From assembly GCF_964213995.1 (NCBI RefSeq), contig NW_027590850.1, forward strand, positions 1-64,000: 64,000 nt of DNA. The letters are read 5' to 3'. The DNA is from Mustelus asterias. Lineage: Eukaryota. Of this stretch, positions 39,766 through 58,400 are shown piece by piece. Position numbers and translations under genes: made by a program. Positions within the stretch are counted from its first letter, which is position 1, and every line of letters begins with the position of its first letter. Under the pieces are notes generated by a model, which saw only the letters and a list, made by a program, of their open reading frames with translations, made no database searches and was not told where the DNA came from.

Positions 39766-41859
39766 ATGTTCAGGGTTTGCATCGACTTTCTGCTGCTTTT
39801 CACTCTGATCTTTACGGAGGTGACCGGAGAAGCTGAGGTGATGCAGTTCCCTCCGCGGATAGTTATCAGGTGAAGTGCGAAACATATCTATGAACTGCAC
39901 CATCTCCTTTGTTTCTAACGTCCTGCGTTGGTACAGACAGCTCCCGAATCAATCACCCCAGCATCTGGTGATGGCCACTGGCGGGAGCTGGAGGCCAAAG
40001 TCTCCGCCCGCCTGGGTCGCTGGACAGGACTGCTCCGAGTGCTGTCCTACGGGGCGCGAGCTCGCGTCATAAACCAGCTGGTCGCCTCCATGCTGTGGTA
40101 CCGGCTGGTCCCTTTGACCCCTCCCCCTGGCTTTGTCACCGATATCCAGAGAACCCTCGTGCGGTTCTTCTGGGGCAATCGACTGCACTGGGTCCCTGCT
40201 GCGGTCCTGTATCTCCCGCTTGAGGAGGGCGGACAAGGTCTGGTGTGCCTCCGCACTCAGATAGCGACCTTCCGCCTCCAGGCTCTGCAGAGGTACCTTT
40301 ACGTTGAGCCCCCTCCACAGTGGTGTGCCATGGCGACGTATTTCTTCCGCCAGTGGCACGGCCTCAATTATGACGTGCAGCTCCTGCATATCGAACTGGG
40401 GCGTGCTTCGACCGCCCTGCAGGAGTTGCCCGTCTTTTACCAGGACCTCCTCACTGTCTGGAACAAGGTCGCCTCGCGACGCAGCTCTCCCCCGTCAGGA
40501 GTAGCGGCTCTCGTGCGAGAGCCGCTGCTCAGGAATCCGCTCCTCCAGCCGTATAACTTCAGGTGGCTGGCGGAGAGGGGGGCTGTGGACGCCGGGGTGA
40601 CCAGAATCGGGGACGTGCTCGATGGCGGAGGAGCGGGCTGGATGAGTCCCCGCGTGCTAGCTGAGCGCGCGGGGACGTCCGTCCGGCGCGCGGCCAAAGC
40701 CATCCTAGACCTTAGGACGGTCGTGCTCGGCCCCGAAACTGCACGCAAACTTGAGACGGCGCAGGCGTGCGGTGGGATCCCGCCCGAGCGTTCCCCTGTT
40801 CGGGCGGAATTCCGCATTGGCCCAAAGCCTCAGCCCCCTCCCCTGGGTGAGGTGCCCCACAGCCTGAGCCGCCTCGCGGAAATGCCCTCCGTGCCTTTTT
40901 CTACCGCGCGGAGGCGTTTCCTGTGCGGGCTGCTGCTGCACACCTTCCACTACCGCCTCCTCGCCTGTCGCCCGGATACACCTTGGCGGGCCTTGTTGCC
41001 GCCGGGCGGCGGAGGTCCCCGCTGGAGGTCCCTCTACGGAGGGATCTCCCCCAATTACGTCGGGGACCTGGGGTGGAGGGTGATGCATGCAGCAGTTCCG
41101 CACAACCGTAGGGTTCACTGGTTCACGGGCTCCGAAGACTGCCCTTTCTGCGGCCTTGTGGAGTCCGTGGACCATGTCTATGTTGTGTGTCTTAGGCTGC
41201 ACTCCCTTTATGTTTTCCTGAAGAACCTTTTATTGATGTTTTGTTTGCACTTCAGTCCCACGCTCCTGATCTACGGACACCCGGTGCGGAGAGGGGAGGG
41301 TCGGGATGGCGACCTCCTCGTGAACCTGCTCCTGGGCCTGGCGAAACACGCCATTTACCGGTCCAGGCAGCGGGCGATCGAGGGGGCCGTCCATCCTGAC
41401 TGTCTGCCCCTCTACCGCGGCTACGTTCGCGGCCAGGTGTCCCTGGAGAGGGAGCATGCGGTGTCCACGGGCGAGGTTGACACTTTCCGCGCCCGCTGGG
41501 CACCGCAGGGGTTGGGGTGCATTATTGACCCTAATAATCACATTTTAATTTGATGTTTTTAAGTTTCCTTTGTATTTTGATTTCTGTTCGGGCTGTTCCC
41601 CCTCCTTTTTGGGGAGCTGCCCCTTTTACTTTGTCCTGATTTAATCTGAGTTTGTTTACTTGGTTTGGTTTGACCTATAAAGAGGTCTCTCTGAATGATG
41701 GTTTGGTTTGCCCTAAAAAGAGGTCTGGTGATGGCCACAAGAGGAGCCGATCAACACGGGAGGATCGCTGCCTCAATGGGTGAAGGCAACAAACTCAGCA
41801 TCCTGACTGTGAGAGACGCACAGGTTTCAGACACCGCCAGCTATCTCTGCGCCGTGAGC
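39766..41859 (+). pseudogene. TCR V-alpha/delta pseudogene with intronless leader, +1 frameshift near 39870, split by a Tx1-type LINE
   Basis: ATG 39766 MFRVCIDFLLLFTLIFTEVTG-EAEVMQ, stop at 39871; shifted frame gives SMNC...WYRQLPNQSPQHLVMAT [insert] RGADQHGRI...DTASYLCAVS; RSS CACAGTG 41860-41866 / 23 bp / GCCAAAACC 41890-41898. Confidence 0.9.
39979..41723 (+). mobile_element. 5'-truncated Tx1/L1-clade non-LTR retrotransposon (ORF2 C-terminal part)
   Basis: ORF uninterrupted to 41553 with LYLPLEEGGQGL and a C-terminal CPFC...H....C zinc knuckle; T-rich 3' UTR; 15-bp TSD tctggtgatggccac at 39964-39978 and 41724-41738. Confidence 0.9.
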
Positions 41860-42560
41860 CACAGTGTAATAAACACAGGGAGGTGCCGTGCCAAAACCTG
41901 CACCGTTTTAAAAACCCGCTCCGCGGGAATGTCAGCGTTTCAAGAAGCGCAGTATTAAATTCCAAGGATAGAGGGAATGACAGCAAAACATTTCTTGAGT
42001 CAGAAAATTGTAATGAGTTTAAAACGAAGAGAGTTGGGAATGTATCCGAAGGAATTGGAAGAGGTTAGATGCAAATCAGAATAAGTGAAGGACAAAGAGA
42101 AAAAAATGCAATTAGAATACTAAAGAGCACAGAAAATCCGGAAACAATGCAGAGAAGAGGAAGAAAGTCAAAAACGTGATGTGATGTATTTTGGCAGGAG
42201 GAAGCACAAAGAAACGTATTGAGTAAATGGTGAGAGGTTTCAAAGGTCTTAGGTTCAGAGGCACCTGCGTGTCCGACTGCATGAATCGCAAATGCTCGTC
42301 TACATGTAGAGCAAGTCCTGAGAATATTGTTGTTCAGCTCAGTTGCTGGAGATCTGGTTTGTGTTGCAACGCAGCACTGACGGCACAGTTTCAATACCTG
42401 TACCCGCTGAGGTTATTGATGAAGTTGCCGCCATCAAAAACCTTGACCCCTCCCCCCCCCCCCCCCTCCTGAGATGTGGTCTGATCTTCAGTTTTAATCG
42501 CCTGCAGCCTCTGCGGCTCTGTCGACTTTAACTTTATTGTTTCTGTCTAACGGCGTGAGA

Positions 42561-45425: not shown

Positions 45426-46142
45426 CACAGCGTTAGATTACAGCTAAAACCCTGTACAAAAACTCCAGCGCGCTCGGTCCTGCATCTTTGATGTCTTTAC
45501 CTGAGTTCGTTTCAAGGCTTACAGAGACAGGTTTTTATTCCAAAAAATTGCATTGCTGTCCTTACCGTTGTTGAAATCAACACAGAGCCAGTCTGGGAAA
45601 TCATCATCCTTATCACCATACCGCGAGTTCGTAAATGTCTCGGAAATTACCCGAATTCTTATGTGGGGCTGACCGACGTGGCGATAGCCAAGGGTTATGC
45701 AATAAGTTTAGCAGATCATTATGGGATGTTCTTCCAGACTCGAAGGGATCCAGGGTCAGTGAGTTTGCCTCACTGGATTGTGTGACAAAGTACAGAATGT
45801 CTAAAAGACTGGGATTGAATTTAACACATGAAGTGAGCAATTAACGTTTCAAAAGCACCGAATAACACAGCCATTGTCCCAAAGGTCCTTGGACAGCACA
45901 CGGTGTCTGGTGTGGATTTTGACAAGCAATAACTCACATCTGAAAGTACTTCTTCCTTTTCGACTGATATTCACAAGAAACCCAGATCAGCAATACATTT
46001 CAGTTACTGGGAGATTGGGGAAAGTTTTCCAGGGACAGCTTTATAAGATGTATATCTCTCCGATGAAGTACAGGCTACAAACAGTCAGGACTGCTCCTCT
46101 GTAGGTTTTTGTACGACTCCTATCGATTTTCACAACATTGTG

Positions 46143-46661
46143 CCTCCATTGCACAGAAATAGGTGGCGGTGTCTGTCACCCGAGTGTCGCTAACGTTCAG
46201 AACGCTGCGTTTCTCTGCAGCAATGTTCCGAGCCCTGATCCTGCCCTGGTCGCTGGTACCGCTCACCAGGTGCTGCATAGTTCGGTCCGGGAATTGTCTG
46301 TACCATTGTAGGACCCGTCCAGCTGCTGTTGTGGAACAGTTCAACGATGCCAGGTACCCCTGGGTAACCACCACGGACTCCAGAGACTGTAATACCTCTT
46401 CGCCGCCAGTGACATCTGGGAAGGATATGTAGATGTGCAACAATATGATAAAATTAATATATCATATCGCAATACAGTGTAGCACAATAAAGAACAATTG
46501 AATACACAATACAAGATAATGCAACAAAACAGAGTACTATTTAACAGAGCATGGCATTACTCATGCATGAAATATTCCTGTCAGAAATAACGATCACACT
46601 CACACTGAGGGAAGAGTAAGAAACCCAGGGAGATGATCACTAACACGAAGCTGGGCTTCAT
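46143..46661 (-). CDS. TCR V-alpha/delta segment (leader exon 46661-46604, V exon 46415-46143)
   Basis: MKPSFVLVIISLGFLLFPQ then gtgagt; acceptor ttcccag; VTGGEEVLQ...LNC...WYRQFP...DTATYFCAME; RSS CACAATG 46136-46142 / 23 bp / ACAAAAACC 46104-46112. Confidence 0.92.
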
Positions 46662-53401: not shown

Positions 53402-55089
53402 CACACTGAGAGGAAAGACGCTCGTCACTGTACAAAAACCTCACGCCTGTTTTCAGTTGCTGCAGCAATCCTACAAAGAGCAGACTGCAGGCAATAGCTG
53501 CCAGAACTAGAGCAGGAAATGGAGCAGGTGAGCGGGGTTGCCCGGGGCTTTGCAATTCCTGACAGCGACTTTGCTTTTCTCAGACATATTGAGAGTCAGG
53601 ATGTAACTAATCCGATTGAAGAAACAGTCGCTCAGTGAGTGTGGGCTTTATGGTGAGGAAATCATCCGCATTCTTTAATTTAAACATGATACTACACTGT
53701 CTGGAATCAGACATTTGGTCTCTGCACAAATACAGAAAGACCTGGACAATATTCAGGTTTGGACTGATAAGTGGAAGCAACGTTCAGGTCACACAGGTTC
53801 CAGGCAATGACCGTCTCCAAAAGAAGAGGATGTGACGAACTTTCCTTGATATTCAATGGCATTACCATCGCTGAATCCTCCCCCCTGCTCCCCCCCTTCC
53901 TCTCCCCCACCCCCAACAACATCCTGGGAGTTGACCGAAAGCTGAACTGGACCGAAGAATATGAATACCGTGGCTACTAGAGCAGATCAAAGGTTAGGAA
54001 TCCTGTGGCGAGTAACTCGCCTCGTGACTCCCCAAAGCCTGTCCACCATCTCCAAGGTACAAGTCAGGGGTGTGAATTGAATTCTCCAGACTTACCCACT
54101 TGTCTGCCTCCCTTGGCCCTGGTGTGACCACCTGATGATAGCTCCTGTCTGTCACCTCCTCATTTTCCCTAACCAGACGATGATCCCGGAGCTGCAGTTC
54201 CAGTTCTCTAACACGGTCCCTTAGGAACCGCAGCTCGACACACCCATCACAGGTTCACAGGTTGTGAAACTTTCAATGTGCGGATAATGAGCAAAGTGCA
54301 AATTTGTCGATAGGGCAGTTTCCAGTGCCCGGATTTTAGGAGGTGTTTCAGGAAATTCAGCTGTTTAAATATCTCGTAAATATGAGCGTTTATTTGAGTC
54401 ATTTGTGAGACTTAGGCGTCACGGGCTCTCGTTGGAGGGCAGTTGAGAGTCAACCACATTGCGGTGGCTCTGGAGTCACATGTCGGCCAGACAAGGTAAG
54501 GGCGGCAGATTTCCTTCCCTAAAGTACATCAGTGAACCAGATGGGTGTTTCCGACAATCTACAATGGTTTCATGGTTTCAGTAGATTCTAAATTGTTATT
54601 GAATTCAAGTTTCACCACCTGCCGTGCAGGAATTCGGACCGGGGTCCCCAGAATATTAACTGAGTTTCTGGGTTAATAATCTCACGATGATGCCACTAGG
54701 CCATCCCCTCTTTATTCATGATATTACCTGATTTTTAAACTGTCTATCACACTTTCCAATCTCTTCCATTTCTATTTCAACAGTTTATTCATTTTCTGAC
54801 CACTTCTCCTATGATAACTGAACTTTCCTATGTTCTGTTTTCCTCTCACTCAGTCGAGTTTACATGTTGCCTCGTTCCTCTTCTCCATCTGTTTTCAACT
54901 ATCTTCATTTTAACGGGATTTCAATAACTAGATTGTATGTTTTATTTTGTGTTGCGCTCATTTCCTTTCTTTACGGATTTTAAAAAATAATCCCATCACT
55001 CTCTCTGCCGCTCCTGCAGACACAGCAGAGTGGCTCTCACTGTCGATGCAGGTTTTTGCATGGGCTCTCCCTGTGTTTGTCACACTGTG

Positions 55090-55422
55090 GCTCACGGCGC
55101 AGAGATAGGTGGCGGTGTCTGTAACTCCGGCGTCTCTCACAGTCAGGGCGCTGAATTTGTAGCCTCCGCCGATTGAGGCTGTGATCCCCTCGTGTAGATC
55201 GGTTTCTCTTGTGGCCATCACCAGGTACTGGGGTGGCTGATTCGGGGACTGTCTGTACCAATGTAGGTTGCTAAATGTAGTGATCGTGGTGCAGTTCATG
55301 GATACGGTTCCCCCTTCACTAACAACCTTCCGCCGAGGAAGCTGCATCACCTCATCTGCTCCAGTCACCCCAGTGCAGGTCAGAGTGAAACACAGCAAAG
55401 AGAGTCTGTAAATTCGGAGCAT
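55090..55422 (-). CDS. TCR V-alpha/delta segment with single-exon (intronless) leader plus V
   Basis: Continuous ORF MLRIYRLSLLCFTLTCTGVTG-ADEVMQ...MNC...WYRQSP...DTATYLCAVS; RSS CACAGTG 55083-55089 / 23 bp / GCAAAAACC 55051-55059. Confidence 0.9.
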
Positions 55423-58400
55423 TTTTCAGATCATATGAAATTTCTGCTGAAGTAATTGTCCGGGGAGTTCAGATCAGAACCAGGACCTGGGTTTAATATT
55501 CGGAAGAATTTACAAGGAGTCAAACGCCTGCTTCGTGTCCAACTGGGGCGTCTCTCTGTCGAACTGATGAAAGAAGCTGAGACTCGGGTTTTATCCGCCC
55601 ACATTCACTGGCATCGATTCTACTGGAATCGGAGATGAAGAATTGAAGCCGGAATAAATAAACCCCATCAGTGACCCCATGTTTCCGGTTACAAATCTCG
55701 TCCCACGTGTCTAACTGGGGAACCATTCGCCCCATCAGAACACTGAGTGAACCCAGCTCGGGGTGAATCCATTCACTGGCAGACAGTTCACCAGCTGCCA
55801 ACCCCACAGCACCCCCGCGGATACAGGGAAATGCAGTGAGAGCATCCCGAGACACGGCAGCAAAATATACAGGGTGAAGTTTGGAAAGGGTGTCTTCAAA
55901 TATCCAACTCCCCTTTTACAGAGCAGACAACAACGATGCTGCTACTCAGCATCTGGATTGTGCGGGGAACCTTCCTGACAGGTAATTATGGACCAAACGG
56001 ATTTCATATTCACTTTAATTTTACAAACTTGTTTTTGAACTGAATTTTACGGATTCAGTCGGTCTGATCTGTTTCCGTTCGAACATGTTTTTCCGATCTG
56101 GGTCATGGAGATTCTGTTACCGAAAGCTTATGGTATTTGCTACCAAATAAACCTGTTGGACTTTAACCTGGTGTTGTGAGACTTCTTACTGTGCTTACCC
56201 CAGTCCAACGCCGGCATCTCCACATCACTGCTTCAGTTATACAGGGCGTTGCTGAGACTGCATCTTGAACACTGGCTGCAGCTTTGTCTCTTATTTAAGA
56301 AATGATACAAATGCATTGAAAGTGGTTCAGAGGAGGTTTAATAGATTGCTTCCCAATTTTTTCCGATTTTCCTTGCCTTCACCTCTGACAAAGAGTAATC
56401 CTGACTCAAAATGTTGCCTCCATTCTCTCTCTACAGATGCTGTCAGACTTGCTGAGATTGTCCAGCATTTTCTGTTTTTGTTTCAGATTCCAACAACAGC
56501 AGAATTTTGCCTTTATACCAATTCTTGTTGGATAAGGGAATCAAAAATATCGGGTGTAGAACGGGAATGTGGAAATCTACACAAATAGATCAGCCATGAT
56601 GTAAATAAACGGGGGAGCAGACTCAAAGGGCCAAATGGCCGACTTCTGCTCCGATGTCGAATGTTGGTCACAAATTCCTGAGAATTGTGAACCAAGGCTG
56701 GAAGATTCGCCTTGCTTGTGTTAGTGGGAAAATGTCCAGGAGAACCATCACTGTGAAGGACAGTTCTGGGATTAAAGGTTGCCAGACTGGAAAAGGAAAA
56801 CAATGGAAATAAACCCTTGGGGAGGAAAGAATCACTTTGGGCTGGTTTTTGGAGAAGGAGTGTCAACATTCCAAGGCAAAATAAAATGTATCCATTGAGT
56901 GGATATTTAATGGTGTTAAGAGTAAAAGGGCAAAGTTTAATTTTACAGTTTCAGGGCTATGTTCCCTATAAAAAAGTGTTTAATCATTGTTGCCTCCAGT
57001 TTGTTGGAATAAACATCAGAAAACTTGAAGTTTTGTCATGTGATTCTTTAATTTGTTTACTGGGTTCAGAATTCATTTTTAAAAATTGTTGATCGTCAGA
57101 GATGCTAACAGTTCATTTAAAGCCACACGTTTCGACTTCCCATTTGAGCCTGTGGCACCTTTCTGTCTCTCTATTGCTCGTGTTAATGACAGCCAGGCGA
57201 CGGAGCTGAGGGCTGAATTTAGCTGAGAATAATGGGGCCTGCGCCCCAGTTGGGAAACTGCCATGGGCGACGCACTAATAGAGAGACAGGAAGGTGCTGG
57301 AGGACTGACTGGGAAATGGGCCTCCAACCAATTATATCGGTCACTCAGAACTAAAGAGAAACCTGTCTCTTTAAATACAGATACAGGGAAGAGGCTGCAA
57401 TGAAATCTGTCCCTTTTAACCTGCACAAAAGCAGGAGGCTGAGATTGCCATTCAGCCCATCATGTTCTGCTATCTCTTTGAAAGGACTCTCTGATTCATC
57501 CAACTGCTCTGTTCTTTCCCCACAGCCCTGCAAATTCTTTCCTTTCAAGTCTTTACCCTTTGGAACGATTCTATTGAATCTGCTTTCAGGCAGATCAGAA
57601 CAACTCACTGCGTCAAAAAATAAAATAAAATCTCATCTCCCCCTCTGGCTCCTTTGTCAATTACCTTAGAGGGACTCACTTTCTGTTAAAGAGCCTGCCA
57701 ACCCCTCTCACCCACTTTCCCGAAAGTGCATCAATCTCATCAGGAAAAGTCCAGAAAAATCAAATATTTTTCCTGATAAAAGTTTATTAATGAAACAGAA
57801 CATGATTAAAACAAACAGAAAAAGACTTGAGGATCAAAGACAACCAGAGTAAAAGGATGTTCACAATGTTCTGGACACAAATGGTTTCTCTCTATCTGTT
57901 CCCTGACCTCTTTGTGGTAAAGGCAGAATTCTCTGGACAGTAAATTTAAAAAGAAGTTTGTCGAATGAAAAAGGTTTACTGAACACAGTGGCACAGTGGT
58001 TCCTGCTGCCTTACAGTGCCATTTTGCAATGTTTTATTGGAGAGTTTTTTTTTGTGAATAAAGTATATTTTTGAAAGAAAAAAAAACGTGTCGCAGTGGT
58101 GTTTTTAGCCCTATAGCTGGAGACCTGGGTTTCAGTGAGCAGAAATATCCCAAGCTGAGATATAATCAGTTTGCTCATTCGGAAAATCGCTATATTGTTG
58201 GGGGCCAGGGGTGGGAATGAAGTCGCTGGTCTGATTATTGTAACAGAGAAACAATGGGTTGTGATTTGTGTCAGAAAACATTTGACAGACATTCAAAATG
58301 AGAATGAACATTGATGGCAACTTGTTCTCAGTGATTGTTTTAAATAGCACAATGACAACCTTGCGAAATGTATATGCCAATATAAACTGTCCCTTAGGCA

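Follow-up and report, generated by a model that had tools for sequence, protein, structure and literature searches.

V gene segments in the window

The window, that is the whole stretch of DNA analysed, comprises 64,000 nucleotides of contig NW_027590850.1 of Mustelus asterias. The V gene that starts at 55422, termed V55, has the following features.

55423..55720 (-): 5' flank of V55, alignable among subfamilies A, B, D and E (see below), with many indels
55422-55420 (-): start codon, ATG
55360..55422 (-): leader, ATG and 21-codon predicted signal peptide, MLRIYRLSLLCFTLTCTGVTG, colinear with the V
55370..55371 (-): place homologous to the usual leader-intron junction, actg/gg, without AG
55090..55359 (-): V domain of TCR alpha/delta type in an open frame, with the two Cys and the Trp in place (Pfam V-set, E 4.6e-9)
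55051..55089 (-): unrearranged 23-RSS, CACAGTG-23-GCAAAAACC, one nonamer mismatch

The frame opened by the ATG comprises 111 codons, leader and then V, and is free of stops to 55090; an in-frame TGA (55428-55426) lies two codons 5' of the ATG. The leader consists of a basic n-region, a hydrophobic core (best 8-residue hydropathy 2.38) and small residues ahead of the predicted cleavage site, a composition suggesting that it acts as a signal peptide. No leader-exon candidate was detected within approximately 700 nt upstream, and the same scan was positive for seven of eight other Vs of the window. Thus, the original prediction of a 21-codon hydrophobic leader running directly into a V that lacks the acceptor AG and keeps an unrearranged RSS (55089-55051) was borne out.

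The first Cys, the conserved Trp and the second Cys of V55 lie in an open V-set frame. The best solved-structure matches of this domain include TCR alpha V domains, and the nearest named proteins are those of Chiloscyllium punctatum. Taking these V-set, structural and protein matches together, V55 appears to originate from the TCR alpha/delta region of a shark. The possibility that V55 is a germline-joined retro-V (a pre-joined retrogene of the TRMVj type) was rejected, as the RSS is intact and no genomic J is attached.

A pseudogene paralog of the same layout had been placed at 39766. It was found there with the junction acgg/ag, on the plus strand, which the prediction had left unstated.

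39766..39978 (+): paralog (subfamily D), 5' half with colinear leader and beginning of the V; +1 frameshift near 39869
39979..41738 (+): insertion of 1760 nt (1.76 kb) with a 524-codon open frame
41739..41898 (+): 3' half of the V and 23-RSS, heptamer at 41860

The frameshift is a one-base insertion. The large insertion is flanked by an exact 15-nt target-site duplication (39964-39978 = 41724-41738), and with the duplicated target site the 3' half and the 23-RSS span 41725-41898. The 524-codon frame had no match in Pfam. The insertion resembles what we take to be the 3' end of a non-LTR retroelement, and it is probably a recent, 5'-truncated element of this type. Broken by the frameshift and the insertion, the paralog is a pseudogene.

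V46, a member of the nearest split-leader family, was used as the comparison gene.

46104..46661 (-): V46
46661-46604 (-): leader exon, 58 nt
46603-46416 (-): phase-1 intron, 188 nt, GTGAGT donor, CCCAG acceptor just ahead of VTG
from 46415 (-): V exon
from 46142 (-): RSS

V46 had been described as a relative of V55 with a phase-1 intron right before VTG. The intron is as described, but the relationship is not close: with only about 40% identity V46 belongs to a neighbouring family. Between 42600 and 60750 the window contains nine other V segments or halves, which represent at least five families and lie in both orientations. The other Vs of the window are the following.

42.7k (-): V
45.1k (+): V
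46.4k (-): V
49.3k (-): V, broken
52.1k (+): V
53.1k (+): V
58.9k (-): V
60.5k (-): V, broken
paralog (+): described above

The single-exon family in the genome

A genome search with V55 yielded 77 family rows with 55-100% identity among the best 150 of 152 matches (hand count). At least 66 copies were colinear over the whole leader and V (from residue 6 or earlier to residue 109 or later), and 59 of these 66 were free of stops (hand count); the family count is a lower bound, as 150 of 1280 candidates were scored, and haplotype duplicates among the contigs may inflate it. For a locus census 42 loci were taken from the 77 rows (the 30 best matches and 12 hand-picked divergent ones), of which 39 could be parsed. 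The ATG was at the same codon in 36 loci and two codons earlier in the other three, and the leader was stop-free in all but one. None of the 39 loci had AG at the canonical acceptor position, and the AG was present in all 21 split V genes checked. A near-consensus 23-RSS was found in 30 of the 39.

The leaders of eight aligned family copies contained no indels, in contrast to their 5' flanks, which contained many. In the same eight copies dN/dS was 0.61-0.65 for the leader and 0.75-0.81 for the V, a weak signal derived from pairs that are not independent. The hydropathy over the best eight residues of the leader was 2.3-3.3 in eight family representatives. We consider it very likely that the single-exon arrangement of leader and V is functional.

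A quick tree was computed from 108 V domains (19 own and 89 of 222 database domains after redundancy filtering). The family formed one clade (SH-aLRT 100) together with three bamboo-shark models and one JGI protein, which at the protein level carry the same kind of leader. The postulated intronless leader and V subfamily was thus recovered as one clade, and the layout is likely to have arisen once in the shark family. The nearest split-leader group in the genome was the V46 family, with a support of only 87; searches for a closer split-leader sister family did not find one. With the copies in the Mustelus asterias genome the JGI protein shares no more than 76% identity. Since IMG gene calls do not model introns, it is probably a colinear copy from another shark. 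Only four family proteins surfaced in protein searches: a single-sequence search gave no match, a search for longer proteins found no full-length chain of the single-exon family, and a scan of metagenome contigs found no family locus.

At least 12 single-exon Vs form a tandem array with a period of about 2.45 kb on the minus strand (G000:C71:19363814-19397245). A J cluster on the plus strand lies at 18.40 Mb of the same contig, C71, approximately 1 Mb before the array; if the assembly is right, the Vs of the array would join by inversion. Vs of the TCR alpha/delta type extend over about 13 Mb of this contig (G000:C71:6.5-19.4 Mb) and are found on dozens of smaller contigs, and a second J array is on C546. 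The spread of the Vs and the second J array reflect either a very large locus or uncollapsed duplicates.

Two subfamilies have features of their own. In subfamily B, five copies (L026-L030) have in common an in-frame TAG in FR2 and a damaged RSS; they represent an amplified pseudogene. In subfamily C (L037, also L039, L045 and L048) the single-exon cassette directly follows the 5' half of an unrelated V gene.

L037:860-1200 = G000:C436:199880-200220: example of the subfamily C fusion

The upstream piece consists of TGACGTCA and a CCAAT-type promoter, a leader exon whose ATG has been lost, an intron of approximately 157 nt and the beginning of an FR1, which runs into a stop. Homology switches from the unrelated V family to the cassette at L037:1176/1178, around 20 nt ahead of the ATG. 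The structure is likely to be a deletion-fusion with promoter capture.

Rearrangement and use

RNA-like data came from four runs of a relative, all from one study; their RNA status is guessed, and X1/X4 and X2/X3 look like duplicates. One contig, present in X1 and X4, departs from the V at 55090 and continues into an in-frame KLVFGSG J motif, leaving no room for a D (hand translation). This contig and the contigs that span the leader (see below) are separate records. The RSS, the 3' flank and 55546-55783 were left uncovered by the relative's contigs, which was not counted as evidence. The KLVFGSG motif was located at 13 places in the two J arrays of the genome, and a 12-RSS-like signal and a donor site accompany it at all six places that were read.

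Of the 19 rows with the label aV9.1 among the nurse-shark TCR-alpha cDNAs (PMC5931798, supplement 3), seven were identified by eye as family members, with junctions. In the accessible parts of that source these cDNAs resemble the shark family in being rearranged and expressed, but the aV9.1 label covers several unrelated Vs, and the rows begin at the mature V and have no leaders. In the main text of PMC5931798 the terms 'intron' and 'single exon' do not occur, and gene structure is not described there. A search of the genome for C-alpha with Pfam PF09291 was negative; the data set behind the nurse-shark rows is one of TcR-alpha. V-to-J (FGXG) joining was thus seen at the level of the family, in relatives, in the contig end at 55090 and in the nurse-shark cDNA rows, and these observations support the use of the single-exon family in rearranged chains at that level.

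Such a gene could be used in a simple way. RAG would join the 23-RSS of the V to the 12-RSS of a J in an alpha-type J array, the mature message would be formed without the need for a leader splice, and the 21-residue N-terminus would be cleaved after VTG or VTGA to yield an ordinary TCR-alpha chain. With good confidence, V55 can be assigned to a large TCR alpha/delta V family of sharks with the following traits: leader and V share one frame, the 23-RSS is intact, members of the family are joined to J and the leader intron was probably lost. This grade is the one for a functional single-exon layout, tempered by the less certain origin of that layout.

Origin of the layout

To account for the missing intron, the leader was compared with leader exons and with intron ends. 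In local protein alignments it scored z 0.6-1.5 against the leader exons of the V46 family, z -0.6 to 0.7 against the intron ends and z -0.6 to 0.2 against the leader exons of other families. In the V46 family the nucleotide identity anchored at the junction was 0.38-0.46 for leader exons and 0.34-0.45 for intron ends. Flank alignments to the V46 family gave z values (-0.1 to 1.5) like those of unrelated families (0.6 to 1.5), and a leader profile tested with joint shuffles matched neither the leader exons (p 0.48) nor the intron ends (p 0.68) of the V46 family. Aligning the leaders to leader exons and to intron ends of the V46 family, a check of the kind proposed originally, thus detected homology to neither; the protein scores lean slightly towards the leader exon, but the four tests (protein local, anchored nucleotide, flank and profile) yielded no significant signal in either direction.

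Loss of the intron, whether through cDNA-templated replacement from a germline V transcript or through genomic deletion, is with both routes taken together somewhat better than an even bet. The leader intron would have gone from one ancestral V, with the RSS and both flanks kept, and this intronless ancestor would then have multiplied through DNA duplication rather than repeated retroposition, since the copies share flanks and at least 12 of them stand in the 2.45-kb tandem array. Intron loss is favoured over exonisation because it takes one step and no relic exon was seen.

Exonisation assumes that the leader intron acquired an ATG in its pyrimidine-rich 3' end and lost the AG there, this end becoming the signal peptide, and that the old leader exon decayed. 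The intron ends of the nearest split family are indeed open for 13-25 codons and include a Met in three of five cases, and the junction-anchored identities for intron ends and leader exons (see above) are similar. The original prediction had seen a hint in this direction in the intron end of V46. It does read in frame, as IILLHIYISFP, but the argument drawn from it does not hold, because in 11 of 21 ordinary split Vs the intron end can likewise be read through as an open hydrophobic stretch, a tendency of any pyrimidine tract. Taking into account that this property is generic, that no homology to intron ends was detected (see the z and p values above), that a relic leader exon was not found upstream of V55 and that exonisation would require several steps instead of one, we regard this origin as doubtful.

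It could also be argued that the transcripts are spliced after all, either from a distant or non-coding upstream exon to one of the cryptic AGs at codons 22 and 23, or with the V serving as a leaderless supporting V, as known from NAR-TCR, and that the 'leader' is a conserved intron end. Phase-1 AGs, potential cryptic acceptors, are present at codon 22 and/or 23 in 36 of the 39 copies and are preceded, 20-45 nt away, by a pyrimidine-rich stretch, and subfamily C has a real upstream exon-intron relic. On the other hand, the bases just 5' of the cryptic AGs are purine-rich, three subfamily C copies have no such AGs, and the ATG and an indel-free frame are maintained across subfamilies. Moreover, contigs from the four RNA-like runs of the relative, approximately 85-91% alike and extending from 55233 or 55242 to 55409-55422, span the leader/V junction by more than 31 letters in either direction and cross both cryptic AGs without joints, and none has a loose end at the junction; the RNA status of these runs is guessed, and if they are DNA, this colinearity says nothing on splicing. 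Hidden splicing is in our judgement improbable.

A common descent of avian TRAV1 and the shark family from an ancient V lineage that was already single-exon was rejected as very improbable: a duck model with a TRAV1-type QVQQ start was the best non-shark match to the family profile (E 9e-12), but it is a fusion of two Vs, and its TRAV1-type fragment, the one truncated duck fragment on which the avian comparison rests, scored 95-135 against four domains that we take to be TRAV4/26-like and 46-84 against the shark family, the former domains forming a separate clade (SH-aLRT 98). Since the duck fragment fits this clade better, the shark layout is likely to be convergent with that of chicken TRAV1 and of separate origin.

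Although a split leader is often regarded as a universal trait of antigen-receptor V genes (accessible parts of PMC12227049), exceptions are known: chicken TRAV1 and TRGV1, and marsupial TRMVj. According to the accessible parts of PMC10972964, chicken TRAV1 (V-alpha1) has 48 genes, all but three of which have leader and V in a single exon, unrearranged and normally rearranging with a 23-RSS; most chicken TRGV1 genes also have the leader in one exon with the V, and their signal peptides have low SignalP 6.0 scores. The single-exon leader and V of V-gamma1 and V-alpha1 in chicken is also reported in the accessible text of PMC8456604. For opossum TRMVj, which is pre-joined and has no leader intron, retrotransposition or intron deletion was proposed (PMC2275272, accessible parts). 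The rarity implied by the original prediction, which had compared only the marsupial TCR-mu joined V, therefore does not stand, as the two chicken families are unrearranged and single-exon too (PMC10972964 and PMC8456604, in their accessible parts).

As far as these sources go, the shark family is like chicken TRAV1 an unrearranged, large and expanded TRA V family whose genes have a single exon for leader and V and carry a 23-RSS, and it is thus a further family of a design that was already known. The two are apparently separate V lineages, and the shark copies, at least 66 of them full-length, are spread over many contigs in either orientation. Chicken TRGV1, judged from the same text, is likewise an unrearranged V family without an intron between leader and V, but it belongs to the gamma locus and has low SignalP 6.0 scores, while a hydrophobic core is clearly present in the shark leader (judged by hydropathy). 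TRMVj shares the missing leader intron with the shark family; as far as described in the accessible text, it is germline-joined to D and J, whereas the shark genes keep the RSS and rearrange somatically. The accessible parts of PMC5278385, PMC6170632, PMC2193156, PMC12698447, PMC12227049, PMC10322711 and PMC2192082 contain no shark case of a single-exon leader and V. Outside the main shark TCR-locus papers, our literature search found no description of the layout in sharks, and one may already exist in print.

A large expressed shark TRAV family of this layout would represent a further, apparently independent loss of the intron, in the oldest jawed lineage. Such a family would show that TCR-alpha can be expressed without a leader intron, and V-finders that demand an acceptor AG would miss single-exon Vs; no new immune mechanism is involved.

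In more specific terms, we tentatively propose, as a possibility rather than an expectation, that a precise loss of the intron from an old shark TRAV came about as a sterile germline V transcript was reverse-transcribed and the product recombined back in germ cells, that more than 60 copies followed, independently of chicken, and that one subfamily took the promoter and the now non-coding first exon of an unrelated V. A sterile germline transcript is invoked as the template because only such an RNA would still hold the RSS. If true, the family would be a fossil record of unrearranged TCR V genes having been transcribed in the germ line.

A further observation concerns the upstream regions. Within 500 nt upstream, TGACGTCA-type motifs were found at none of the 39 single-exon loci, compared with three for V46, where the motifs lie between 46800 and 46970 of the window together with related half-sites.
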